Part shown: positions 1 through 20,207 of the stretch, piece by piece
Position numbering within the stretch: the stretch's first letter is position 1
How the letters are laid out: the number at the start of each line of letters is the position of its first letter
Source: a virus
Lineage: Duplodnaviria; Heunggongvirae; Uroviricota; Caudoviricetes
Reading direction: 5' to 3' (one strand)
Length of the DNA: 20,207 nt
IMG/VR virus record: IMGVR_UViG_2718217714_000002
Location: 1 to 20,207 of that record
Made by a program: the position numbers and the translations under genes
Notes under the pieces: generated by a model
What the model saw: only the letters and a program-made list of their open reading frames with translations
The model's database searches: none
What the model was told of the DNA's origin: nothing

Positions 1-225
1 ATGAAGATCGTAAAGGCTGAAGTTTTTGTTACCTGTCCGGGGCGTAATTTCGTCACATTAAAAATCACCACTGAGGACGGTATTACGGGCCTTGGGGATG
101 CCACCCTCAATGGACGTGAGCTTTCCGTGGCCTCTTATTTGCAGGATCACCTTTGTCCGCAGCTTATTGGTCGCGATGCGCACCGTATCGAAGATATCTG
201 GCAGTTTTTCTATAAAGGTGCTTAA
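1..225 (+). pseudogene. rspA: 5' fragment (74 codons) of rspA-like enolase-superfamily dehydratase gene, truncated at a prophage/deletion junction
   Basis: Translation [74 protein letters not shown] matches the N-terminus I recall for E. coli RspA (about 400 aa). The frame hits TAA at 223-225 where the native gene would continue (..KGAYW..). Downstream DNA is phage-like. Confidence 0.75.
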
Positions 226-690
226 CACTGTTTTTGGTTTTAACTGTTCCGCGTGCGCTCAGCCGCATTCACCACATCACAAAATTCACTTTAAAAAGGG
301 CGGCAGAGCAGTCACGGAGTAAAACTGATACCGCCAAACGTCACCAGAAAATTGATAACAGAGGGCGTTGCAGCGGGGTTGTCACTTAAGCGTATGGTCA
401 ACCTGACAACCCGGTGTCCTCAACGGGGAAGGAATAGCCCCGCCATACTTACCGCCGCGCCATTTCGCGGATTGCCACAACCGGAAGCGCACGGTCGACG
501 AAAATTTAACAACAGGCTATCTATGAACCAGCTACCTCGCCGTGCGCTTTCGCGTTATGGTCTGACTTTTCAGGGAAATATCCTTTCAGTAAACTGTCAG
601 TGCCGGATGCTCACCCGTGTCCGGCGCACGCACTCCACCTCACCCGTGGAGAACTCCTTAATTACCAACCTTAGCTTCGTTGGTTAGCTA

Positions 691-909
691 TTAACGCGGG
701 TATGTAATCATTCTGGCAATGCTTAATGCCGCTGCTTTTTCCAGATTGGTGATATCCTGCTCCAGAGCGGACAGATTTTCAGCCTGCTTAGCCCTGGCTT
801 CATTGGCCCATTTCAGATCCTGCGCTGCATTAATTTTCTGGTGCATCCACTCATAAAGTTCATCATCGGTATAGTCTGGCGCGATGATGACGGGTTCTCG
901 TTTCTGCAT
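691..909 (-). CDS. Small prophage protein, YdaG-like (Rac early-left region)
   Basis: 72-aa ORF MQKREPVIIAPDYTDDELYEWMHQKINAAQDLKWANEARAKQ..., resembles the small Rac ydaG product as I recall it. Co-directional with and downstream of the repressor. Confidence 0.4.
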   Translation of the reverse strand: MQKREPVIIAPDYTDDELYEWMHQKINAAQDLKWANEARAKQAENLSALEQDITNLEKAAALSIARMITYPR

Positions 910-1224: not shown

Positions 1225-1489
1225 GCTGACCTCATTTCCCCTTAACGCCGGGGTAGCGGAACAAAAACCTGCTGCATAGTTATTAAAGTTGAACCCTGCC
1301 GTCATGTTCTTACGCCTCGGGCTGGCTACTTAACCCCTGACCACTGCCTGGTAACTCGAAGTATTGCCCTGCATTCTGTGGGGCGGGGTGGGTTGGTATG
1401 AAAAGAAGAATACCCATAGGTATTTAAAAAGTAAATACCCATGGGTAACTTTTTGCGGTGTCTTAACTGGTGACTAGTTGTTTGGTGAG

Positions 1490-1909
1490 CTATGATGCGT
1501 TTTGTGCTTTCTTTTTACGGATTTCTTCGTAGATCATATTGTAATACTGTTTTTTCTCTTCAAGAGTTTTTAATAAGTTATCCGCTTCACTTTCTGGCAG
1601 TTCGTCTAAGAGATCTAAAAAAATACGTTGTCGTGGCGTTAGAACCCTTGTTTCATAACTGGAGGCTGTGTTCGTTGATGATGAAACGATACCATCCATC
1701 CATCCCCGGGGTAACCCAAAGGACTCTTCGATAATCTCCACCATATCATCAGCGATCCGTTTTTTTCCCTTTTTCCCCTCTGGGTACAACATTCTTGATA
1801 CATAAGAAGGCTCGCGCCCGATCTTTCTGGCCACGTTAACCGCTTTACCATCGCATTTCTCATCACGAATTTTGATGAGTTGCTGTCGTCTAAATTCATA
1901 TTTGTCCAT
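1490..1909 (-). CDS. Prophage repressor, HTH (XRE/CI-like) DNA-binding protein
   Basis: 139-aa ORF with helix-turn-helix-like segment KAVNVARKIGREPSYVSRML. Divergently transcribed from a Cro-like gene across a 100-bp operator region. Confidence 0.6.
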   Translation of the reverse strand: MDKYEFRRQQLIKIRDEKCDGKAVNVARKIGREPSYVSRMLYPEGKKGKKRIADDMVEIIEESFGLPRGWMDGIVSSSTNTASSYETRVLTPRQRIFLDLLDELPESEADNLLKTLEEKKQYYNMIYEEIRKKKAQNAS

Positions 1910-1927
1910 AGGTAAATAATAGATGCG

Positions 1928-1974
1928 ATTACTGCAAGGTAAACAACCTGCGGGTATTGACTTTTGTTTACCTG
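1928..1974. promoter_or_regulatory. Immunity-region operators and candidate rightward promoter
   Basis: Direct repeat CCTGCGGGTATT at 1937-1948 and 1961-1972. Inverted repeat GGTAAACA (1928-1935) / TGTTTACC (1955-1962). TTGACT (1947-1952), 16-nt spacer, TATTCT (1969-1974), then AAGGAG (1989-1994) before the ATG at 2010. Confidence 0.5.
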
Positions 1975-2009
1975 CGGGTATTCTTTGCTGTGTTTACTAA
2001 GGAGTAGCT

Positions 2010-2291
2010 ATGGAAGAATTAAGAATATTTCTCAATTCTCTTTCGTCAGATGAACAGCGTATGTTTGCATGCGAGTGTGGTACTAGCATCGGTTATCTAA
2101 GAAAGGCATTGAGTAAAGGTCAAGTGTTAGGGGCATCGTTATGTGTCCTTATTGAGCGAGCCAGTAATGGTGAAGTTACACGTCAGCAACTAAGGCCTTT
2201 TGATTGGATGAATATTTGGCCCGAGCTGGAAGATACCAAAATGTTAACACAACCACTTTCTAGGAGCTTGATTCATGAAAATCAAGCATGA
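2010..2291 (+). CDS. Cro-like transcriptional regulator (YdaS-like)
   Basis: 93-aa ORF first rightward of the operator, good SD, motif CECGTSIGYLRKALSKGQ. Position and size fit Rac YdaS / Cro-type proteins. Confidence 0.6.
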   Translation: MEELRIFLNSLSSDEQRMFACECGTSIGYLRKALSKGQVLGASLCVLIERASNGEVTRQQLRPFDWMNIWPELEDTKMLTQPLSRSLIHENQA

Positions 2292-2765: not shown

Positions 2766-3842
2766 GTGAGTATGGCTAACGCCTGGCTCAGATTATGGCA
2801 TGACATGCCAAATGACCCTAAGTGGCGAACAATTGCCAGGGTGTCAGGGCAGCCAATTGCAACAGTGATGGCAGTGTATATCCACCTCCTGGTGAGCGCG
2901 TCACGAAATGTCACGCGAGGTCACATTGATGTCACGACAGAAGATTTGGCAAGTGCGCTCGACGTGACAGAAGAGGTAATTGATTCAATTTTGCAGACGA
3001 TGCAGGGGCGGGTACTTGATGGTGATTTAATCACTGGATGGGAAAAACGCCAGGTGCTTAAAGAGGACAACGGCAATATTTCGCAAACCGCAAAATCTCC
3101 TGCAGAGCGCAAGAGGGCGCAGCGAGAGAGGGAAAGAAAGCGGGAACAAAATGGCGATTGTCACGGCGCGTCACGAAATGTCACGCACATGTCACGACGA
3201 GTCACGACAGATAAAGATACAGATAAAGATACAGATCAAGAAGATCAAAACACTATGGTCCATGGCGTAAAAAACGCCACGAACCAGGCAGGGGATGTTC
3301 AGACCGTCAATCTTGGTCAGCCAGCAGGCACGACACCGGAAGCCGATTCAGCGTATGCGCTGAAAGCCGATTCGGGCGCTGTGCAGCAGGTGATGACCGC
3401 AAGGGCGGAGCAATCACACCAACTGCAGCAGCCTGAAGCCGATTCCGCCATTCAGCGGGAAGCCGATCGGGTAGTCCCGGAAAACACCGGGCAGTCTGTG
3501 GGACGAGTGGATTATCCGGATGTGTTCGAACAGGTCTGGCGGGAGTACCCGTTGCGTGCTGGGGCAAACCCGAAGAAATCCGCTTTCAGTGCCTGGAAGG
3601 CCAGATTACGCGAGGGGGTGCCACCAGAGGCCATGCTGGATGGCGTGAGGCGTTACGCAAGATACTTGGCGGCTACCGGGAAAACGGGAACGGAATTTGT
3701 TCAGCGAGCGACGACGTTTTTTGGACCGGACCGGAATTTTGAGAACCCCTGGTTGCTCCCGGTAAGCGGCACGAACAACCAGCGTTGTGTGAATCATATT
3801 TCTGAACCGGATAACGAAATTCCGCCGGGCTTCAGGGGGTAA
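2766..3842 (+). CDS. Phage replication initiation protein (replisome organiser, YdaU/O-like) containing origin iterons
   Basis: 358-aa ORF in the replication position. Contains two clusters of 10-bp-phased GTCACG repeats inside the coding sequence, as in lambda O / ori. Acidic DKDTDKDTDQEDQ linker between domains. Confidence 0.6.
   Translation: MSMANAWLRLWHDMPNDPKWRTIARVSGQPIATVMAVYIHLLVSASRNVTRGHIDVTTEDLASALDVTEEVIDSILQTMQGRVLDGDLITGWEKRQVLKEDNGNISQTAKSPAERKRAQRERERKREQNGDCHGASRNVTHMSRRVTTDKDTDKDTDQEDQNTMVHGVKNATNQAGDVQTVNLGQPAGTTPEADSAYALKADSGAVQQVMTARAEQSHQLQQPEADSAIQREADRVVPENTGQSVGRVDYPDVFEQVWREYPLRAGANPKKSAFSAWKARLREGVPPEAMLDGVRRYARYLAATGKTGTEFVQRATTFFGPDRNFENPWLLPVSGTNNQRCVNHISEPDNEIPPGFRG
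2898..2940. repeat. Iteron cluster 1 (four GTCAC[G/A] copies at about 10-bp phasing)
   Basis: GTCACG at 2900, 2910, 2931 and GTCACA at 2920. The 19-mer GCGTCACGAAATGTCACGC (2898-2916) recurs exactly at 3168-3186. Confidence 0.6.
3160..3250. repeat. Iteron cluster 2 (five GTCACG copies) plus adjacent GATAAAGATACA tandem repeat
   Basis: GTCACG at 3160, 3170, 3180, 3191, 3201. Immediately followed by GATAAAGATACA x2 and GATCAAGAAGATCAA. Confidence 0.6.
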
Positions 3843-3882
3843 GTGTTAATTTCTGGTCATGAGGTAATTTTCAGGAGGGCTT

Positions 3883-4305
3883 GTGGCAAAAGTTTTTACA
3901 CAAGAAGAGCGGGAAAAAATTAAAGGGCAGGTTCTTGAACTCGTACGCCAGAGTGGGCGCGAGACGTTACGACAACTGGAAGCTAAAACTGGGGCAACAA
4001 GATATCTGATGAGCGTTCTGGCCAGAGAGCTGGTTGCCAGTGGCGATGTATACAATTCTGGCTACGGGTTATTCCCGTCTGAACAGGCTCGTAAAGACTG
4101 GCAAAATGCCCGCAAAAAATTATCGAGGGCAAAGCTGAAGAAACCGGTTGTGGTTGATCCGGACCTTATCTGGTCATTACCTGACGGAGAAATACGTCGC
4201 TACGACAGTCGCCTAAACATAATCTGTCGCGAGTGCCGGAAGAGCGAAGTTATGCAGCGCATATTGTCGTTTTATCAGGGGGATGTTCGGTATTTATTGA
4301 AGTGA
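3883..4305 (+). CDS. Hypothetical protein, possible winged-helix DNA-binding; replication-module accessory
   Basis: 140-aa ORF with GTG start 3 nt after AGGAGG. No family recognised. Confidence 0.4.
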   Translation: MAKVFTQEEREKIKGQVLELVRQSGRETLRQLEAKTGATRYLMSVLARELVASGDVYNSGYGLFPSEQARKDWQNARKKLSRAKLKKPVVVDPDLIWSLPDGEIRRYDSRLNIICRECRKSEVMQRILSFYQGDVRYLLK

Positions 4306-4639
4306 CGAGATTAAAGTGCATTAGTTCAGATGCAAATTGACATTTTGTGGCACAGGGTAGAGCTAGCGTGGTTGTCCGCTTTGTGCCAAGAGCAGACGCT
4401 GGTAATTCGTGCCTAATATACTTCACTTAACTTATATCCCAGCTTTGATACAGATCATACAAATTAAATGCCCCAGTAATTGGCAGGCTGAGTAACTTAA
4501 AACTCCTTAGAATATAGGATGATTTGTATCGGCACTCATTCCACCATGCATTCCGATTAATCCCGCATAGCCAGTTGAACTTTGCTACTCTGTGAGAGGT
4601 AGTACCTTCTATCCAGTGCGGATTTAATTAATGGAATAA

Positions 4640-6643
4640 ATGATTATGAGTGAAAATGATACAACCCCAAAGAAGTCTACAAGCCAGGTTAACAAAGCGG
4701 TATTCTTTACATCTGCTTTGCTAATTTTCCTTCTTGTCGCCTTTGCCGCCGTATTCCCGGATGTCGCCGACAAAAATTTTAAACTACTTCAGCAACAAAT
4801 CTTCACGAATGCCAGCTGGTTCTACATACTTGCTGTGGCCCTGATTTTACTGAGCGTCACGTTCCTTGGACTCTCACGTTACGGTGATATAAAGCTGGGC
4901 CCAGACCATGCGCAGCCTGATTTCAGCTACCACTCCTGGTTCGCGATGCTTTTTTCGGCAGGGATGGGGATCGGCCTGATGTTCTTTGGCGTTGCCGAAC
5001 CTGTGATGCATTATCTTTCGCCACCTGTCGGCACTCCAGAGACCGTTGCGGCAGCGAAGGAAGCCATGCGCCTGACGTTCTTCCACTGGGGTCTGCACGC
5101 ATGGGCAATTTATGCCATCGTGGCGCTGATTCTGGCCTTTTTCAGTTACCGTCACGGTCTGCCTTTAACGCTGCGTTCTGCGCTCTATCCCATTATCGGC
5201 GATCGCATTTACGGGCCTATAGGCCACGCGGTTGATATCTTCGCCGTGATAGGCACTGTCTTTGGCGTTGCAACATCGCTGGGTTACGGTGTATTGCAGG
5301 TGAATGCCGGTTTGAACCATCTTTTCGGCGTGCCCATCAATGAAACGGTACAGGTCATTTTGATCGTGGTCATCACGGGGTTAGCGACGATTTCGGTGGT
5401 GTCCGGCCTGGACAAGGGAATACGCATCCTGTCTGAGCTTAATCTGGGCCTGGCGGTGTTGCTCCTGGCGCTGGTCTTGTGCCTGGGTCCCACTGTGCTT
5501 CTGCTGAAGTCATTTGTGGAAAATACGGGTGGTTATCTGTCGGAACTGGTGAGTAAAACGTTCAACCTTTACGCGTATGAACCCAAGTCGAGCAACTGGC
5601 TGGGGGGCTGGACATTATTATACTGGGGATGGTGGCTTTCATGGTCGCCGTTTGTAGGTATGTTCATTGCACGCGTTTCCCGCGGCAGGACAATTCGTGA
5701 GTTCGTGACTGGCGTGTTGTTTGTTCCCGCCGGCTTTACGCTCATGTGGATGACGGTGTTTGGAAACAGCGCCATCTATCTCATCATGAACCAGGGCGCC
5801 ACTGACCTCGCCAATACCGTTCAGCAGGATGTTGCGCTTGCCCTGTTTAATTTCCTGGAGCATTTCCCGTTCTCTTCCGTGCTGTCATTCATTGCAATGG
5901 CGATGGTCATCGTCTTCTTTGTAACGTCTGCTGATTCGGGGGCAATGGTTGTGGATACTCTGGCATCAGGTGGGGTGGCAAACACGCCCGTCTGGCAGCG
6001 AATTTTCTGGGCATTGCTCATGGGCGTTGTTGCTATTGCCCTGCTGATCGCAGGGGGGCTGAGTGCGTTGCAAACCGTAACGATAGCGAGTGCATTGCCC
6101 TTCTCAGTTATCTTATTAATATCCATATACGGACTGTTAAAAGCCCTGCGTCGGGATTTGACCAAGCGTGAAAGCCTTAGCATGGCGACTATTGCTCCTA
6201 CGGCTGCACGTAACCCAATTCCCTGGCAGAGAAGGTTACGCAATATCGCGTATTTGCCGAAGCGCTCTCTTGTGAAACGTTTTATGGACGACATTATCCA
6301 ACCCGCCATGACGCTGGTTCAGGAGGAACTTAACAAGCAGGGAACGATAAGCCACATCAGTGACGCCGCCGAGGATCGTATTCGCCTTGAAGTCGATTTG
6401 GGCAACGAGCTGAATTATATATATGAAGTGAGGCTTCGCGGGTATAACTCACCGACCTTCGCGCTCGCTGCGCTGGATAATGATGAGCAGCAGAGTGAAC
6501 AACATCGATATTATCGCGCTGAAGTCTATCTCAAAGAGGGCGGCCAAAATTATGATGTAATGGGCTGGAATCAGGAACAGCTGATTAATGACATACTGGA
6601 CCAGTACGAAAAACACCTGCACTTCCTGCATCTGGTTCGTTAA
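4640..6643 (+). CDS. BCCT-family transporter, BetT-like (choline/betaine/carnitine type) with C-terminal cytoplasmic domain
   Basis: 667 aa. Multiple TM segments and BCCT signature region WTLLYWGWWLSWSPFVGMFIARVSRGRTIREF. Overall collinear with E. coli BetT as recalled, including the C-terminal ...ILDQYEKHLHFLHL tail. Confidence 0.85.
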   Translation: MIMSENDTTPKKSTSQVNKAVFFTSALLIFLLVAFAAVFPDVADKNFKLLQQQIFTNASWFYILAVALILLSVTFLGLSRYGDIKLGPDHAQPDFSYHSWFAMLFSAGMGIGLMFFGVAEPVMHYLSPPVGTPETVAAAKEAMRLTFFHWGLHAWAIYAIVALILAFFSYRHGLPLTLRSALYPIIGDRIYGPIGHAVDIFAVIGTVFGVATSLGYGVLQVNAGLNHLFGVPINETVQVILIVVITGLATISVVSGLDKGIRILSELNLGLAVLLLALVLCLGPTVLLLKSFVENTGGYLSELVSKTFNLYAYEPKSSNWLGGWTLLYWGWWLSWSPFVGMFIARVSRGRTIREFVTGVLFVPAGFTLMWMTVFGNSAIYLIMNQGATDLANTVQQDVALALFNFLEHFPFSSVLSFIAMAMVIVFFVTSADSGAMVVDTLASGGVANTPVWQRIFWALLMGVVAIALLIAGGLSALQTVTIASALPFSVILLISIYGLLKALRRDLTKRESLSMATIAPTAARNPIPWQRRLRNIAYLPKRSLVKRFMDDIIQPAMTLVQEELNKQGTISHISDAAEDRIRLEVDLGNELNYIYEVRLRGYNSPTFALAALDNDEQQSEQHRYYRAEVYLKEGGQNYDVMGWNQEQLINDILDQYEKHLHFLHLVR

Positions 6644-6650
6644 CAGCAAC

Positions 6651-6679
6651 ATGCCGCCACAGAGGCGGCATTTATTTAT
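6651..6679 (+). terminator. Rho-independent terminator after the BCCT gene
   Basis: Stem ATGCCGCC (6651-6658) / GGCGGCAT (6664-6671) followed by TTTATTTAT. Confidence 0.6.
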
Positions 6680-6691
6680 CCCGGCTGCAAT

Positions 6692-7984
6692 ATGAGGGAA
6701 TGCAGAATGATTTCACGCTGGAAATGGATGCTGAAGCAGACATTTAAAAAACTATGGTTCAGGGCAACGTTATTCGCAATTGTCGCAATAATAACGGCCC
6801 TTTTATCAATTCTTTTTAAATCAATGATACCTGAGTCGGTTTCCGTGAAGGTTGGTGCGGAAGCAGTCGATAACATTCTGAACATACTGGCATCGAGTAT
6901 GCTGGCAGTGACCACATTTTCGCTGAGCATCATGGTCACAGCCTACGGTTCAGCCACTACTAATGTGACTCCCAGAGCTACTCGTTTAGTCGTTGAAGAC
7001 GTCACCACACAAAATGTACTGGCCACCTTCATCGGTTCTTTTCTCTTCAGTCTGGTAGGGATTATTGCCCTCAATATGGGAGCTTATGGAGAAAGGGGGA
7101 GAGTCATTTTATTCATTGTAACACTGGTTGTCATTGCCTTAATCCTCATCACATTGCTTCGCTGGATACAGCATTTGACCTCTCTGGGGAGGGTTGGTGA
7201 GACAACGGCAAAAGTAGAACAGGCGGCCATCGAAACATTTATTGCGAGAGCAAGAAATCCCTGTCTCGGCGGATATCCATGGCTTGAGAACAATGAACAG
7301 CCGAAAGGAACGGTTGCAGTTTATCCGAAAAAGATTGGCTATGTTGAATATGTTGATATGGTGAAACTCAGCAAGCTGCTGACCAATGATCCCCGTCATG
7401 TATACCTCGTGGCGCAGCCGGGCAGTTTCATACATCCGTCCACGCCAGTTTTGTACCTGAGTCAGGGCCAGGAGTCATCAATCAGCACCGATTTACTTGA
7501 GACGATTATTGTCTCGGATGTACGTTCATTTGCTCAGGACCCCCGATTTTGTCTTAGCGTCATGGCCGAAATAGCCTGCCGAGCCCTTTCCCCCGCAGTG
7601 AACGATCCTGGAACCGCCATTGATGTCATTGGCAGAGGTGTACGTATACTTTCCGCTTACGCGCAGAATAAATCTGATGAAATAGAAGTGAAATATCCTT
7701 CTGTACATGTTGCACCACTTCAGAATAACGATCTACTTGAAGACTTTTTCTCACCTGTTGCGCGCGATGGTGCCAGTATGAGGGAAATTCAGATAAGGGT
7801 CCTTAAAGGACTGTCGATGCTGAGTAAGGGTTGGCCTGGAATTTTTGCTGAAGCCGCACAAACCCTAGCATTTGAAACATTAGAGCATGCTACTCGTGCT
7901 GACCATATAGATTCTGACAGATATCTAATAAAATCAATTTATTATAATTTATTTAGTGGCGAAGATTCTAATAAAAAACCATAG
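6692..7984 (+). CDS. Membrane protein with N-terminal TM helices and large C-terminal soluble domain (possibly DUF2254-like)
   Basis: 430-aa ORF. Hydrophobic helices in the first about 160 aa, then a soluble domain. Likely true start at ATG 6707 (GAGGGA SD 7 nt upstream). Family assignment is from memory of the architecture and is unverified. Confidence 0.55.
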   Translation: MRECRMISRWKWMLKQTFKKLWFRATLFAIVAIITALLSILFKSMIPESVSVKVGAEAVDNILNILASSMLAVTTFSLSIMVTAYGSATTNVTPRATRLVVEDVTTQNVLATFIGSFLFSLVGIIALNMGAYGERGRVILFIVTLVVIALILITLLRWIQHLTSLGRVGETTAKVEQAAIETFIARARNPCLGGYPWLENNEQPKGTVAVYPKKIGYVEYVDMVKLSKLLTNDPRHVYLVAQPGSFIHPSTPVLYLSQGQESSISTDLLETIIVSDVRSFAQDPRFCLSVMAEIACRALSPAVNDPGTAIDVIGRGVRILSAYAQNKSDEIEVKYPSVHVAPLQNNDLLEDFFSPVARDGASMREIQIRVLKGLSMLSKGWPGIFAEAAQTLAFETLEHATRADHIDSDRYLIKSIYYNLFSGEDSNKKP

Positions 7985-8266
7985 TTGCGGAGCAAGCGAT
8001 ACGGTTGTTGGCAAGTCAAGGGCAAAGCATTCGCGTGAGAGTGGGCGTCTGCTTTGTGCCAGGAGCGGAAGTTGCCAAGAGAACTCTTGCAAAGGTATGA
8101 TAACGTAGGTGCTAAATAATCATGAACCATAATAAATTAAAGGTTTTTAAGTTGACTCTATGGCGTTTCTTTTGCATGATGATTTTTTATTTATTATATA
8201 AAGCTTAAATATACATAATATTTAGCTTCATTTTTTTAGGTATTTTAAAGATTTAGAGGAATGTGA

Positions 8267-9610
8267 ATGGCTACTTATGCTTCTTATTTACCAGAATCAC
8301 AAATTATCACTTTGTGCAAGGATTTCCCAGCGTTTACTGATCCTGAAAAATTAGATGGATTCATTAATCCAGAACAGTTTGGCGTGTTTTTTCATGAGTG
8401 GATTCATTTTCTTCACAATATTTCCACAATTAATGGGTTTTCTATTTTTTGCACGCAAAACATCCTGTGGTCTAATTTTCGCTGGGCAATGGACAATCAG
8501 GATGTATGTCTTGGTTCAAATGACATGGATCCAGCACATATCGAATCAAACAAAAATTTTCTCAGTTACATTCGTTCCAATAGGAGTCCGCATAAATGTA
8601 ACTTACCTTATTATGTAAAAGTAAACGACTTGTATTTTGAGGATGCAATAATCCATGACATGGAGGTTGCTGACGGTAGTGTTATATGTACATCATTAAT
8701 AAAGTGTAGAATTTCTCATTCTGAAAACAAATACGATCTAGATTTAGGCGTGCTTGAAATACTTGAATCCGCAGCTTTTATGCTTGAATGTAAGTGTATT
8801 AATGCGATGAATGGCTTCCCTCAAGAGGCACCCTTTTATCCGTATCATACTATCAAGGGCTTAGCAGCGAAAATTGCTCCGTCATTAAATGATGAAGATA
8901 TTATTTGTTGTATGTTAGCTTCTTTGCAATCTAATAACCCTCCCCAAGTATTATTCAATCTACTACATAAATGTGAATTATTACATTCTGATTGTAGGTA
9001 TGAACATCTAGTGGCGGAGGTGAAAAAACAATTAAGCGAACAAGATCAAATAATAAGCGAGTCACTTAATCAAATAATTCAAATGATTCCTGTTGATGAA
9101 CCGATGGGAAACTTTATCAAGCTTACTCTTAACAGAATAAGTAACAATTTGAACTATAGAAAGCAAAAACCGTTTTTTGAGTTAGATATAATAAAAAAAA
9201 TAGCAGAAAAAACTGAGTTTATGAATGAAGTAATACAGAAATTCGGTGGTTGCACTATCATCCAGGTAAGACATGGAGATGATAATGAACCACAGCGTGA
9301 TATTATGTATGACTTTTGCTTACCTGAAAATAATGATTCAATTTTATTTGGTTCGAAAATGCTACGCGCTTGTTTTCACTTTATATTTATTCACTTTAAA
9401 CTTTCTGGTGAAATCATGAAGACAGAAGAATTAAATATTTCGCCGCGTAATAAATGCCCATTTTATACTGTTTGCTGTGCATCAATTCGAGCTAATAATA
9501 GTAATATCTGCGCTGAATCCCCTTGGAAATCAATGTCTATTGATGACAACAAAGGTTGTTATTATGCAGCAGCGATTAAAGCTACTAACCCACCAGTTTT
9601 GCCGGATTAA
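8267..9610 (+). CDS. Hypothetical 447-aa protein with N-terminal HExxH motif (possible zinc metallopeptidase-like), in an AT-rich island
   Basis: Long ORF with AGAGGA SD. FFHEWIHFLHN at residues about 41-51. Cys-rich C-terminal part. Markedly AT-rich by eye relative to neighbours. No family recognised. Confidence 0.6.
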   Translation: MATYASYLPESQIITLCKDFPAFTDPEKLDGFINPEQFGVFFHEWIHFLHNISTINGFSIFCTQNILWSNFRWAMDNQDVCLGSNDMDPAHIESNKNFLSYIRSNRSPHKCNLPYYVKVNDLYFEDAIIHDMEVADGSVICTSLIKCRISHSENKYDLDLGVLEILESAAFMLECKCINAMNGFPQEAPFYPYHTIKGLAAKIAPSLNDEDIICCMLASLQSNNPPQVLFNLLHKCELLHSDCRYEHLVAEVKKQLSEQDQIISESLNQIIQMIPVDEPMGNFIKLTLNRISNNLNYRKQKPFFELDIIKKIAEKTEFMNEVIQKFGGCTIIQVRHGDDNEPQRDIMYDFCLPENNDSILFGSKMLRACFHFIFIHFKLSGEIMKTEELNISPRNKCPFYTVCCASIRANNSNICAESPWKSMSIDDNKGCYYAAAIKATNPPVLPD

Positions 9611-10156
9611 GAATAGTGTTCTATCTGATAAATATAAAATATTTAAGGTCAGGTCTGCTTATCGCTCAAAGCGGACTAGAAGGTTAGCTTGCGTCGGACT
9701 TGGCGTATTTAAAGAAGTACTGGTGGTGACTGGTTGTTGTGTTCCATTTCTACAGAACAAAATCACAGAAACTATACCCAATAGTTGTATCTCATCAATG
9801 ATGAGACAGCCTCATATTTATCAGGACTGGTGTACGTCCAATACAGGAGGTTGTCGTGCTGGTTCTCAAATGTGCGCTGGCTATTGCAGCTGTAATGGCA
9901 ATTTATTGTCTTGCTGTTGTTCTTATGGATCGCCTTTCTGATTGATTTTATATTGGCGAGGTAACGGGAGTTAAGTAGAATGGCTGCGGGTGCTTGAGGC
10001 TATCTGTCTCAGGCATGAACACCAAAGGCAGATAGAGAAAAGCCCCAGTTAACATTACGCGTCCTGCAAGACGCTTAACATTAATCTGAGGCTCAATCTA
10101 TGAACGGCAAATCTAGGTTAGCCTCTTACGTGCCGAAAGGCAAGGAGAAGCAGGCT

Positions 10157-10312
10157 ATGAAGCAGCAAAAGGCGATGTTAATCGCCCTGATCGTCATCTG
10201 TTTAACCGTCATAGTGACGGCACTGGTAACGAGGAAAGACCTCTGCGAGGTACGAATCCGAACCGGCCAGACGGAGGTCGCTGTCTTCACAGCTTACGAA
10301 CCTGAGGAGTAA
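10157..10312 (+). CDS. hokD: Hok/Gef-family type I toxin (HokD/RelF-like, 51 aa)
   Basis: MKQQKAMLIALIVICLTVIVTALVTRKDLCEVRIRTGQTEVAVFTAYEPEE matches Hok-family sequence as recalled. AAGGAG SD upstream. Overlapping upstream mok-like frame from 10100. 5' tac-like (about 9985-10000) and 3' fbi-like (about 10350-10376) complementary elements. Confidence 0.85.
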   Translation: MKQQKAMLIALIVICLTVIVTALVTRKDLCEVRIRTGQTEVAVFTAYEPEE

Positions 10313-15837: not shown

Positions 15838-15913
<76 letters not shown>

Positions 15914-15916
15914 TAT

Positions 15917-15991
<75 letters not shown>

Positions 15992-17399: not shown

Positions 17400-17528
17400 A
17401 TGAAGTCGAAAGATGAAATTTTTGACGAAGTTCTGGGAAAAGAGGGCGGTTACGTCAATCACCCGGATGATAAAGGCGGACCGACAAAATGGGGTATTAC
17501 GGAAAAAGTCGCCCGCGCTCACGGATAA
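17400..17528 (+). pseudogene. Endolysin 5' fragment (glycoside hydrolase family 108-type N-terminus), truncated after 42 codons
   Basis: MKSKDEIFDEVLGKEGGYVNHPDDKGGPTKWGITEKVARAHG then TAA. The GGYVNHPDDKGGPTKWGIT signature is the conserved start of GH108-type phage lysozymes. The downstream sequence switches to tail-fibre coding DNA. Confidence 0.65.
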
Positions 17529-18129
17529 CGGGAAATACACCGCACAGAATGCAACGACAGCACAGAAAGGGATAGTACAACTCAGCAGTGCGACAAACAG
17601 TACTTCCGAGTCACTGGCGGCAACGCCAAAAGCAGTTAAGGCCGCGTATGACCTGGCTAACGGGAAATACACCGCACAGAATGCAACGACAGCACAGAAA
17701 GGGATAGTACAACTCAGTAGTGCGACAAACAGCACTTCCGAGTCACTGGCGGCAACCCCAAAAGCGGTCAAAGTGGTAATGGATGAGGCTCAGAGCAAAT
17801 TATCAAAGGATGAATTTTTAAGAAGTATCAGTTCGCCGAAACCGGATATCGGCAGTGTGGTTATGGCAGCTTTTTTGGGAGTAGCGGAAGGTGGAGTTTT
17901 AATGCGCCTGAGTCGTGGACAACCATGCCCGGGAAAAGCACTTGCGCCGGTGGAAATAGTAGTGGGAGGCGTGACAGGAGCAGGCACAATGAAAGGGGAG
18001 GCAACGTTTGTCATTGGCAGAACGAATACATCGGCATTTCCCGGAGTGTATCAGTCTCTGGGGGGAGATGGTCTTTATACCACCAACGGAAAGGAAGCGT
18101 ATATAGGATTATTTGTGCGGGTCGGGTGA
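17521..18129 (+). pseudogene. 3' fragment of side tail-fibre gene (tail-fibre repeat region plus C-terminal domain)
   Basis: Contains two copies of the tail-fibre repeat GKYTAQNATTAQKGIVQLSSATNSTSESLAATPKAVK, as in Stf proteins. The first about 36 codons of the 17413 track ORF are out-of-frame overlap with the endolysin fragment. Confidence 0.65.
17527..17769 (+). repeat. Tandem direct repeat, 132-bp unit, about 1.8 copies (coding tail-fibre repeat)
   Basis: AACGGGAAATACACCGCACAGAATGCAACGACAGCACAGAAAGGGATAGTACAACTCAG... at 17527 and again at 17659. Also produces the mirrored minus-strand ORF 17346..17771. Confidence 0.8.
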
Positions 18130-18135
18130 CAGAGT

Positions 18136-18702
18136 ATGCAGATAAAAAATATAAGAAATGCCATGTTTCTGGAGGATGGTGCTGTATATTGTGAAGTGCT
18201 TTTGGAGGGGCAGGAGGTACATCTACCTTATACCGCTGTTGAGAATGATGTTGCGGAAATGGGTAAACAGGTCTGGCAGGAACTGCAAAGCGGGAAGTGG
18301 GGCGGAATAGCCCGGTTTACCGTTACGCCTGAACTTATTGCCGCAGAAAAAGAGGCTAAAGTGCGTGAGATCGAAGTATGGCGTCAGGAACAGGAGTCCA
18401 TGTCGTTCATGCTGGAATGGAAAGGTCACAAATGGAATGCTGGTCCGGTTTCGCTGTCCCGCCTCTTACCAGTGGTAATGGCGGCGAAATCAGGAGCTGG
18501 CAGAGAAACAATTGTTTGGGGAGATGGAGAGAATACGCCAATCGTCCTGACGATGCAGGAACTGGAAGAACTTGCGGCAGTAATGGCACGGGCACAGGCC
18601 GATCGCAATGACGAGATTTATCGTCGTCAGCGGGAGATGAAGGAAGAGCTGAATAATCTTGATGATTTACGCTCAATCCGAGCGTTTGACGTTACGCAAT
18701 AA
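18136..18702 (+). CDS. Putative tail-fibre assembly / chaperone-like protein
   Basis: 188-aa ORF immediately downstream of the tail-fibre fragment, the usual Tfa position. Sequence not confidently matched to a specific Tfa family. Confidence 0.4.
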   Translation: MQIKNIRNAMFLEDGAVYCEVLLEGQEVHLPYTAVENDVAEMGKQVWQELQSGKWGGIARFTVTPELIAAEKEAKVREIEVWRQEQESMSFMLEWKGHKWNAGPVSLSRLLPVVMAAKSGAGRETIVWGDGENTPIVLTMQELEELAAVMARAQADRNDEIYRRQREMKEELNNLDDLRSIRAFDVTQ

Positions 18703-18923
18703 AAAAAACACTGATATGCAAGCCCCTTGTAAAAATATTGAACAGGGATGCTTTGAGTTGAATTGGATTTACATGGGGGCACCTTGGGGCATATATGGGA
18801 CATAAAAAGGCCTCAGACAAACAGCAAAATCGAGATCAGGAGTTTTTAGAAAAAATACAACTATCTGAAAAAACTTAGAAAACGCCCAAAAATCCATAGG
18901 ATGGTAAAAAATATCTATGAATT

Positions 18924-20207
18924 ATGGATTTCCAGTTATATTCGCTCGGCGCAGCGTTGGTGTTTCATGAAATATTTTTTCCTGAATCATCAACGGCAAT
19001 GGCGTTAATTTTGGCAATGGGAACCTACGGTGCAGGTTATGTGGCGCGTATTGTCGGAGCATTTATTTTCGGCAAAATGGGCGACAGAATAGGGCGTAAA
19101 AAAGTGCTCTTTATTACCATCACCATGATGGGGATCTGTACCACCTTAATTGGTGTGTTACCGACCTATGCACAGATTGGTGTTTTTGCCCCCATCTTGC
19201 TGGTGACGCTGCGTATTATTCAGGGGTTGGGTGCAGGTGCGGAAATTTCCGGTGCCGGTACGATGCTGGCGGAATATGCACCAAAAGGTAAGCGCGGAAT
19301 TATCTCCTCATTTGTAGCTATGGGAACTAACTGCGGAACCTTGAGCGCAACGGCAATCTGGGCCTTTATGTTCTTCATTCTCAGTAAAGAGGAACTGCTG
19401 GCGTGGGGATGGCGTATACCGTTCCTGGCGAGCGTTGTCGTGATGGTCTTTGCTATCTGGTTACGTATGAATCTGAAAGAAAGCCCGGTCTTTGAGAAGG
19501 TTAATGACAGCAACCAACCCACAGCAAAACCTGCACCTGCTGGTAGCATGTTCCAGAGCAAATCCTTCTGGCTGGCAACAGGGCTGCGTTTTGGTCAGGC
19601 GGGTAACTCCGGGTTAATTCAGACTTTCCTTGCAGGCTATTTAGTGCAGACGTTATTGTTTAACAAAGCAATTCCAACAGATGCATTGATGATTAGTTCG
19701 ATTCTCGGCTTTATGACCATTCCGTTCCTTGGTTGGTTATCCGATAAAATTGGTCGCCGGATCCCGTATATTATTATGAATACCTCCGCGATTGTGCTGG
19801 CATGGCCAATGCTTTCTATCATTGTAGATAAAAGCTATGCCCCGAGCACCATTATGGTTGCACTGATTGTGATTCATAACTGTGCGGTGCTGGGATTATT
19901 TGCTCTGGAAAACATTACCATGGCAGAAATGTTCGGCTGTAAAAACCGCTTTACCCGGATGGCCATTTCTAAAGAAATTGGTGGTCTTATCGCTTCCGGT
20001 TTTGGTCCTATCCTGGCGGGTATTTTCTGCACCATGACGGAATCCTGGTATCCGATCGCCATTATGATCATGGCATATTCAGTGATTGGTTTAATCTCTG
20101 CGCTGAAAATGCCAGAAGTGAAAGACCGTGATTTAAGTGCGCTGGAAGACGCTGCGGAAGATCAACCGCGTGTTGTAAGAGCTGCGCAACCTTCCAGAAG
20201 TCTGTAA
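18924..20207 (+). pseudogene. ydfJ: MFS (metabolite:H+ symporter family) transporter gene lacking its 5' end; ydfJ-like prophage-interrupted gene
   Basis: 427-aa ORF begins MDFQLYSLGAALVFHEIFFP..., i.e. inside the conserved (E)W(Y)DF region that normally follows TM1. In-frame TGA three codons upstream. Matches what I recall of E. coli ydfJ, which is interrupted by Qin. Confidence 0.7.

Follow-up and report, generated by a model that had tools for sequence, protein, structure and literature searches.

A truncated rspA gene at the left boundary of a Qin-like prophage remnant: probable scar of a single deletion across the integration end

INTRODUCTION

The window analyzed here, the whole stretch of 20,207 nucleotides of the Caudoviricetes record IMGVR_UViG_2718217714_000002 in IMG/VR (positions 1 to 20,207), opens on a bacterial gene, rspA, whose reading frame ends after 74 codons where prophage DNA begins. 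This raises the question of what kind of event set the two sequences side by side, and what it left of the prophage and of the host genes next to it. We find that this left boundary very probably marks where one deletion of 6.9 kb cut into a lambdoid prophage that lies in the 5′ end of ydfJ beside rspAB, the site of Qin. The coordinates of the features on which this rests are collected in Table 1.

TABLE 1 Features of the left boundary and of the right prophage end (window coordinates; a dot marks features without strand)
Feature	Position	Strand	Basis or remark
rspA′ pseudogene	1-225	+	Codons 1-74 of the 404-codon starvation-sensing/D-mannonate dehydratase-family gene, plus a TAA made by the junction
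Deletion junction	223-224	.	TA present in both parents (2-bp microhomology); direct comparison of the window with loci L002 and L003 (ETEC-2265)
dicF-dicB spacer remnant, 73 nt	225-297	-	On the 3′ side of dicF as transcribed; same sequence in K-12 and ETEC-2265
dicF sRNA gene with Rho-independent terminator (GGCGG...CCGCCC, then U-run)	298-349	-	Rfam RF00039
Conserved RNA element, predicted four-way junction	363-485	-	Immediately upstream of dicF; conservation, minimum free energy (MFE) fold, covariance model
Rest of the untranslated ydfC-dicF spacer of the dicBF transcript	486-690	-	No supported ORF; indels among homologues not multiples of three
ydfC	691-909	-	RefSeq annotation of matching DNA; the promoter-proximal dicBF genes ydfC/ydfB/ydfA are PHROGs 1744, 2061, and 751
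ydfB	939-1109 (RefSeq-style start, 939-1067)	-	RefSeq annotation of matching DNA
ydfA/DUF1391	1069-1305 (RefSeq-style, 1069-1224)	-	RefSeq annotation; Pfam DUF1391
Prophage repressor, distant DicA relative, 139 aa	1490-1909	-	phrog_5736 transcriptional regulator, E 4e-70
attR core (TGAATTATGGATTTCCAG)	18918-18935	.	Right prophage end; compared with the empty rspB-ydfJ site of contig L007 and attL of ETEC-2265
ydfJ′, truncated ORF	18924-20207		Starts inside the attR core; N-terminally shortened; MFS transporter domains

RESULTS

Breakpoint and rspA fragment

The window starts at the rspA start codon, and its first 224 nt are 100% identical to nt 1 to 224 of rspA in K-12, ETEC-2265, and CP66-6. 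After GGT GCT the native gene continues with TAC TGG CGT, whereas the window reads TAA CAC TGT. With the break marked by a slash, the parental sequences are GGTGCTTA / CTGG in rspA and CCACCCATA / ACACTG in the prophage, and rspA sequence abuts that of the dicF spacer directly, with zero extra bases. The TAA at 223-225 is therefore itself a product of the join, with bases from both sides, and it closes an ORF of 74 codons. A sequence-only reading of this DNA had placed the truncation at codon 74 and the divergence at about 222-225, and had taken the site for a junction rather than a point mutation. Both claims hold: the breakpoint lies between 222/223 and 224/225, which fixes it to 2 bp, and past nt 224 the window continues as prophage DNA, with no more rspA.

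A nonsense mutation at codon 75 of an otherwise complete rspA would give the same 74-aa product, and such alleles are real, as six contigs (L004 to L009, of which L007 is prophage-free) have TAC changed to TAG at this codon, with the remainder of rspA and rspB intact behind it. For the window we give this explanation next to no chance, because its stop codon is TAA and prophage DNA follows nt 224; the sequence itself refutes it. The same peptide arises from the TAG allele, so the peptide alone does not identify the junction.

A member of the RspA family is expected to be about 404 aa in full length, to score above the curated cutoff, and to have both an N-terminal capping domain and a C-terminal barrel domain. 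The 74-codon ORF matches RspA/ManD models at positions 1 to 74 of 404 only, with 145.5 bits against a cutoff of 430 for NCBIfam PRK15072/ManD and 135 against 550 for NF043051; in Pfam, MR_MLE_N is matched in part and MR_MLE_C is absent. The ORF is a gene fragment and no functional member of the family.

Extent of the deletion and the right prophage end

The intact arrangement is found in ETEC-2265 (NZ_CP023346.1), in the order rspA-rspB-int-xis-exo-DUF1482-dicB-[dicF]-ydfCBA. Measured against it, exactly 6,895 bp are missing from the window (positions 3225 to 10119 of the ETEC-2265 locus, L003); measured against K-12 Qin, the gap is 5,410 bp, from rspA nt 224 to the dicB-dicF spacer. The lost segment comprises rspA nt 225 to 1215, rspB, a 5′ stub of ydfJ with attL, int, xis, exo (2.5 kb in ETEC-2265), a ydfD-like DUF1482 gene, dicB, and 101 bp of spacer, and none of these pieces is similar to anything in the whole window. 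On the prophage side the deletion ends inside the 174-bp dicB-dicF spacer, 73 to 75 bp past the dicF terminator.

The earlier proposal that a deletion had removed the int end of the prophage along with the 3′ part of rspA, and presumably rspB, is borne out by these alignments, one to a strain with intact rspAB and one to K-12 Qin: int, xis, attL, the 3′ part of rspA, and rspB are all absent from the window, and attR is normal in ydfJ. That account of the boundary was incomplete in extent, since exo, the ydfD-like gene, and dicB were lost too. It had also stated that no integrase or att module was present, which is right for int, xis, and attL but not for attR, which survives at the far end.

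The right end, with attR and a truncated ydfJ, is that of a Qin-type prophage in ydfJ, and the attL, int, and xis that would make the left end excision competent are missing. At the empty site, in contig L007, rspB is followed directly by a 455-aa ydfJ, and the attR core of the window matches this site. The window thus holds the whole 18.7-kb remnant between rspA′ and ydfJ′. Given a normal attR in ydfJ, the simplest history is one deletion across the left prophage-chromosome boundary. The presence of attR and ydfJ′ in their places rules out an insertion of the phage into rspA, and an inversion is excluded because it would have set dicB in reverse orientation beside rspA′.

Occurrence of the junction and of a related scar

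The junction, sought with a 211-nt probe, was covered in none of the 5,426 complete E. coli genomes, and a 30-mer across it was absent from species-representative genomes, JGI metagenomes, and IMG/VR. The only search that found a further copy was an exact look-up of the 74-aa product, which is recorded in 96 blocks of an assembly index. The contigs examined form two unrelated groups, one being the TAG alleles described above. The other comprises L010 (Logan ERR1790128), L011, and L012. L010 has the window junction plus 27 nt before the contig ends. Its junction lies in the native ynfE-ynfA context, and the flank from ynfE to rspA′ matches E24377A, among other strains, at 100% over 6.2 kb, up to rspA nt 224, where the match stops. 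In L011 and L012 (GCA_044915045.1 and GCA_017759905.1), as in 13 similar places, contigs end at rspA nt 223; such a break fits the junction, without being proof of it, because a multicopy prophage repeat would begin there.

The same repeats could be taken to suggest an assembly artifact, in which a mis-join at a repeat edge hides an rspA that is really intact. The dicF-ydfC DNA is multicopy (the 211-nt probe was found at a median of 2 and up to 10 places per E. coli genome), the draft contigs L011 and L012 end exactly at this point, and no complete genome has the junction. We nonetheless consider an artifact very improbable: an independent assembly made from different reads, L010, has the identical junction and continues past it, an intact single-copy rspA would not break contigs at nt 223, and the window runs to a proper attR/ydfJ′ end without any sequence from the 3′ part of rspA or from rspB. 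We conclude that the junction is real and common to a lineage known so far from draft data only.

A related scar, here called the CP66-6 type, occurs in 18 of the 5,426 complete genomes, and the window could have been derived from it in a second step, had a further 682 bp (rspA nt 225 to 890 and 16 bp of prophage DNA) been deleted. Both scars have their left end in rspA, their prophage-side breakpoints lie 16 bp apart, and the second step would again involve a TA microhomology; moreover, L010 matches CP66-6 and other B1-like strains, e.g., E24377A, at 100% over 6.2 kb of chromosomal flank. That flank, however, is common to many strains and not diagnostic. The retained prophage DNA is far nearer to the intact ETEC-2265 (2 mismatches in 1,178 nt) than to CP66-6 (17 in 1,166), and from an ETEC-2265-like prophage one event suffices instead of two, which makes a two-step origin unlikely. 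Because of this difference in the prophage DNA, the two scars most likely represent independent events.

Formation of the join

As a single deletion, the event would have had one end in rspA after nt 224 and the other in the dicB-dicF spacer past the dicF terminator. The join was most likely made by illegitimate recombination, either microhomology mediated or end-joining-like, because the ends share only TA and no mobile element lies there. A 2-base microhomology is about what chance would give, and it lends weak support to any one recombination pathway.

IS copies do occur in the relatives (IS2, IS3, and IS100 in K-12 Qin and the ETEC-2265 prophage), and IS elements often generate flanking deletions, so an IS-mediated adjacent deletion has to be weighed, as does an aberrant Int/Xis excision. 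We found no IS element, IS sequence, or terminal repeat at or near 223-224, and no IS or terminal inverted repeat abuts the breakpoint. The att core TGAATT(T)ATGGATTTC is at neither of the parental breakpoints, and an aberrant excision would normally take the prophage body, not leave 18.7 kb of it. Either mechanism is extremely improbable here.

The retained part of the dicBF operon

The prophage DNA next to the scar had been described as early-left, and the comparison confirms this, placing it in the early-left (dicBF) operon of a Qin-like lambdoid prophage. The sequence-only reading had further found no convincing ORF in 226-690, which stands, but the segment is not featureless, as an intact dicF had been missed; the sieB- or kil-like genes that had been suggested were not found in the searches run, and the segment holds dicF instead. 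The match to the Rfam family covers its full length (1-52 of 52) at 76.7 bits, against a gathering threshold of 48, with an E value of 1e-15. The gene also has the expected context, with ydfC, ydfB, and ydfA upstream on the same strand and a terminator stem followed by a U-run; downstream, dicB is absent because of the deletion. Of the operon, ydfABC and dicF remain intact, as do the dicF terminator, the conserved flanks to either side, and the 73 nt of downstream spacer.

A block within that spacer (237-276) is conserved in all DicF-type cassettes and in phage P7, where 40 nt beyond the P7 tRNAs (1150-1189 of locus L013) are 95% identical to it. A duplex between DicF (347-299) and 267-234 is predicted at -32.7 kcal/mol, a marginal value that 8% of shuffles equal.

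In the published description, dicF lies inside a long untranslated region of the dicBF operon, and DicF receives its 5′ end from RNase E and its 3′ end either from intrinsic termination (53 nt) or from RNase III cleavage of a read-through RNA (72 nt); DicF is an Hfq-dependent repressor of ftsZ, xylR, and pykA (PMC5069750). This organization and processing, compared with the sequence of the window, fit the deletion reading. Upstream, the 139-aa repressor has a weak match to the NCBIfam DicA model in its C-terminal part and, by analogy with DicA (PMC5069750), presumably keeps the dicBF-type operon silent. The interval from the repressor gene to ydfA gave no consensus sigma-70 site in a promoter scan.

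Protein-coding readings of 226-690

Three plus-strand ORFs (111, 54, and 51 aa) are without a match in Pfam, PHROG, or NCBIfam, and ORFs of 29 and 30 aa on the minus strand have none in PHROG. Homologous copies of the segment vary by indels of 1, 2, 7, 9, and 17 nt. One further minus-strand ORF (36 aa, 382-492) matches phrog_8854 with an HMM E value of 2e-12; we rejected it as a gene because its reading frame is not conserved among homologues. Common variants are set apart by a 1-nt indel within it, CCCCG versus CCCCCG (15 and 9 distinct sequences), and others swap the stretch for compensatory stem sequences of different length. The family phrog_8854 is probably a translation of the RNA element described below. 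PADLOC gave no defense-system match for the unannotated ORFs of the prophage.

A conserved RNA element upstream of dicF

Among diverged prophage copies, which are about 84 to 87% identical to the region overall, positions 361-481 are conserved more than dicF itself. The MFE fold of the single sequence and a model built by hand predict the same four-way junction. It consists of a closing helix (480-473/374-367), a hairpin (470-455), a compound arm that carries a hairpin with a variable stem (442-424), and a hairpin (411-377) whose apical sequence is invariant; the loop of the variable-stem hairpin is pyrimidine rich (UCCUU). Covariance model R1 recovered 100 copies. In the alignment to this model 96.4% of cells are paired, against 33 to 61% with slid partners, and 9 pairs are changed on both sides, a number reached by 1 of 500 shuffles, although an alignment fitted to a covariance model leans towards the structure it was given.

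The clearest evidence for the predicted fold is the compensatory change in the stem of the variable hairpin, which reads CGGGG/CCCCG, CGAGG/CCUCG, CCAGGUG/CACCUG, CCCGGG/CCCGGG, CUGGG/CCCAG, or GGGU/ACCC in different copies around a loop that keeps UCCUU/CUCC. RNAalifold on the raw MAFFT alignment returned a partly different and poorly supported fold, in which the variable hairpin was misaligned, and the model-based realignment was used instead. A long-range duplex of the far-upstream with the downstream flank, a candidate RNase III stem, was no better than shuffles and was dropped.

The element occurs well beyond Qin-like prophages. It is found at 79 to 81% identity in phages P1 and P7, a few tens of nucleotides after the C1-controlled operator Op(ban) and ahead of tRNA-Asn and tRNA-Thr. 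It is also found near the start of the 2H10 early-left operon (within about 350 nt downstream of the repressor gene), in Stx2c phages, in one Salmonella phage, and in more than 120 IMG/VR contigs. In all copies examined it is followed by a variable stretch and then, within about 10 to 60 nt of the element, by a hairpin and U-run resembling an intrinsic terminator. This terminator belongs to a canonical DicF in some copies and to DicF variants with other 5′ sequences in others, and in P1 and P7 it is a separate one. A search of 226-700 against Rfam gave no family besides DicF, even at E values up to 10, and a scan of genome contigs with a 16-mer of the element gave mostly chance matches in unrelated phyla. 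In the literature we found no link between dicF and the P1 ban leader.

DISCUSSION

Consequences of the deletion

The earlier claim that the element had been fixed in place is supported: lacking int, xis, and attL, the remnant should be unable to excise. The host would be deprived of the sugar-acid functions of RspAB, the loss of which is seen within the window. Upon derepression, the prophage would no longer make the toxic DicB and YdfD, and DicF should still be made, its transcript stopping at its own terminator; transcripts that read through this terminator would now run antisense into rspA′.

Taken by itself, the scar is ordinary prophage decay and a new allele of a well-known event, the fixation of a Qin-type cryptic prophage by a deletion across its integration end. 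It adds a further example of a cryptic prophage locked in by loss of the integration module, with the host rspAB lost collaterally. The exact junction can serve as a lineage marker, being absent from the 5,426 complete genomes and present in draft data. Deletion and amber mutation, two unrelated routes, lead to the same 74-aa RspA fragment, and clustering at the protein level would wrongly merge them.

The scar splits the two division inhibitors of the dicBF operon, as DicB is gone together with the lysis protein YdfD and the sRNA DicF is kept together with its conserved flanks. An independent deletion elsewhere made the same split, and if this pattern holds widely, it would suggest that hosts keep DicF for regulation while shedding DicB. 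There may be selection for loss of dicB, but two events are too few to decide.

The RNA element is a more interesting by-product of this analysis than the scar, as it offers a concrete, testable starting point for the question of how cells make DicF-type sRNAs or bypass their terminator; together with the recurrent retention of the dicF module, this unannotated structured RNA slightly raises the value of an otherwise unsurprising scar. Tentatively, the observations can be joined in one reading. The undescribed but widely conserved element may form a fixed module with DicF-type sRNAs, composed of the element, a variable single-stranded "seed," an intrinsic terminator, and a conserved downstream block, and may likewise head the C1-controlled ban/tRNA leader of P1 and P7 and other lambdoid early-left operons. 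It might act in cis in read-through, as a put-like antiterminator or a riboswitch-like attenuator, or in sRNA processing. Selection to keep the complete dicF module, with dicB dispensable or harmful, could then explain why both deletions between rspA and the prophage stop within the 174-bp dicB-dicF spacer.

Comparison with known systems

The known analogue considered for the element is the put RNAs of HK022, which are cis-acting processive antiterminators (PMC9378689). The put RNAs and the element alike are structured RNAs of about 70 to 120 nt that lie early in an early-left operon, ahead of terminators that need to be read through; on this similarity of context we offer terminator read-through, and alongside it sRNA processing, as hypotheses for what the element does. 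The put RNAs differ in having two stem-loops (about 70 nt) instead of a four-way junction, and the element of Qin-like prophages, placed behind ydfABC, is not promoter proximal. Membership in the put family was considered and rejected, since the HK022 immunity region gave at best a match of 11 nt (E 0.14) and the fold differs.

Compared with the known dicBF operon, the window has the same full-length dicF with its terminator, downstream of ydfABC in a long untranslated region. It differs in that dicB and ydfD are gone, so that only the sRNA half of this division-inhibition operon is left.

K-12 Qin (Kim) has the left-end order rspA-rspB-intQ′-IS2-ydfE′ (exo′)-ydfD-dicB-[dicF]-ydfC-ydfB-ydfA-dicA-dicC. 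It shares with the window the attachment site in ydfJ next to rspAB, the orientation, and the ydfABC-dicF operon, and both prophages are defective; window positions 226-436, with dicF and its flanks, are identical in K-12, and 223-1262 are 97.8% identical. K-12 differs in its immunity region and in keeping rspA, rspB, a truncated int, a broken exo, ydfD, and dicB.

The ETEC-2265 prophage, which occupies the same site and has an intact left arm, is 99.6% identical over the 75% of the window that the two share, with 100% identity in 226-700 (0 differences in 475) and 99.83% in 223-1400 (2 in 1,178). The two also share the BCCT/DUF2254 cargo and the hok/sok, Q, methylase, and tRNA-Thr/Gly genes. 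In contrast to the window, ETEC-2265 has complete rspAB, attL, int, xis, exo, DUF1482, and dicB, and it also differs in a repressor/cro module of its own, in extra IS3 and IS100 copies, and in a ParA-type module where the window has a 447-aa ORF.

The closest parallel to the scar itself is the CP66-6 type, in which a truncated rspA, annotated by RefSeq as a partial pseudogene, likewise runs directly into the dicB-dicF spacer across a TA overlap. In that scar the rspA part ends at about nt 890 instead of 224, the prophage breakpoint is 16 bp nearer to dicB, and the prophage sequence is unlike that of the window at 17 of 1,166 positions, but in both scars the DNA from rspB through dicB has been lost and dicF has been kept.

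A conserved RNA element upstream of dicF

Covariation supports a four-way-junction fold for the conserved RNA element upstream of dicF (see table), which no Rfam family matches and which is also carried by the leader of the P1/P7 ban operon and by other lambdoid early-left operons. In every copy examined, a variable stretch follows on the 3' side, and then a terminator-like hairpin with a U-run. The 36-aa ORF lying over the element was ruled out as a real protein by frameshifting and compensatory variants, and on account of these variants we consider that the phrog_8854 family, which it matches, is probably no true protein family and was derived by translating the conserved RNA. Past the dicF terminator, a 40-nt block (window 237-276) is 95% identical to a stretch of phage P7 (L013 1150-1189) that sits beyond tRNA-Asn and tRNA-Thr, so that common conserved flanks surround different contents: dicF in the Qin-like prophages, tRNA genes in P1/P7.

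Features of the window and of comparison loci (L handles; L013 is phage P7, L001 is CP66-6_Sichuan)
Feature	Location	Strand	Remarks
Four-way-junction RNA element, conserved	window 363-485	minus	upstream of dicF; covariation
Further copies of the element	L013 2491-2610; L139 1491-1607; L141 1505-1627; L016 1998-2124
36-aa ORF	window 382-492	minus	phrog_8854, E 2e-12
Inverted repeat, 16-bp arms	window 1411-1447		TACCCATAGGTATTTA...TAAATACCCATGGGTA; T-run after repeat on minus strand
Immunity module	window 1401-2268		139-aa repressor; 93-aa Cro/YdaS-like protein
BCCT betaine/carnitine/choline-family transporter and DUF2254 membrane protein	window 4640-7984		667 aa; 430 aa
447-aa ORF	window 8267-9610		phrog_15354
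hok/sok type I toxin-antitoxin locus	window 9988-10312		sok RNA 110 bits; Hok/Gef ORF 10100-10312
Phage-borne tRNA-Thr(UGU) and tRNA-Gly(UCC) genes	window 15838-15991		downstream of DNA methylase gene
Second internal deletion scar	window about 17413-18702		homology to ETEC-2265 stops at 17527
Second rspA-prophage deletion	L001 6880-6910		CP66-6_Sichuan and 17 other complete genomes

Other rspA alleles and a second scar

In other E. coli strains (L004-L009, locus position 10223-10225), a point mutation has turned rspA codon 75 from TAC into the amber stop TAG. The window's deletion junction makes TAA at this very codon; with both stops at one codon, these two unrelated alleles yield an identical 74-aa product. 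In the CP66-6-type scar, rspA is cut after nt ~890 and followed by the dicB-dicF spacer, where the breakpoint is 16 bp from that of the window, and the 'TA' overlap seen in the window is present at this junction too. Judged from the sequences, this deletion is most likely an event independent of the window's.

Homology to ETEC-2265, an E. coli strain with a nearly identical prophage at the same site, breaks off within the endolysin gene. The region is a second internal deletion scar: ORF 17413-18129 runs on into tail-fibre repeats, with a tail-fibre-assembly-like gene (DUF4376) after it, so that the prophage lacks its genes for lysis, packaging, head and tail.

Cargo and immunity region

The BCCT transporter and DUF2254 protein genes are cargo within the prophage; in ETEC-2265, copies of IS3 and IS100 lie ahead of these two genes, and the window is without them. 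ETEC-2265 lacks segment 8070-9653, which carries the 447-aa ORF, and has a ParA-type module in its place; the ORF has no match in Pfam or PADLOC. The inverted repeat, which lies between the repressor gene and ydfA, may act as the repressor gene's terminator or as an operator for the dicBF-type promoter. The immunity module itself differs from that of ETEC-2265 although the two prophages are otherwise nearly identical, which indicates an exchange of the immunity region by mosaic swap.
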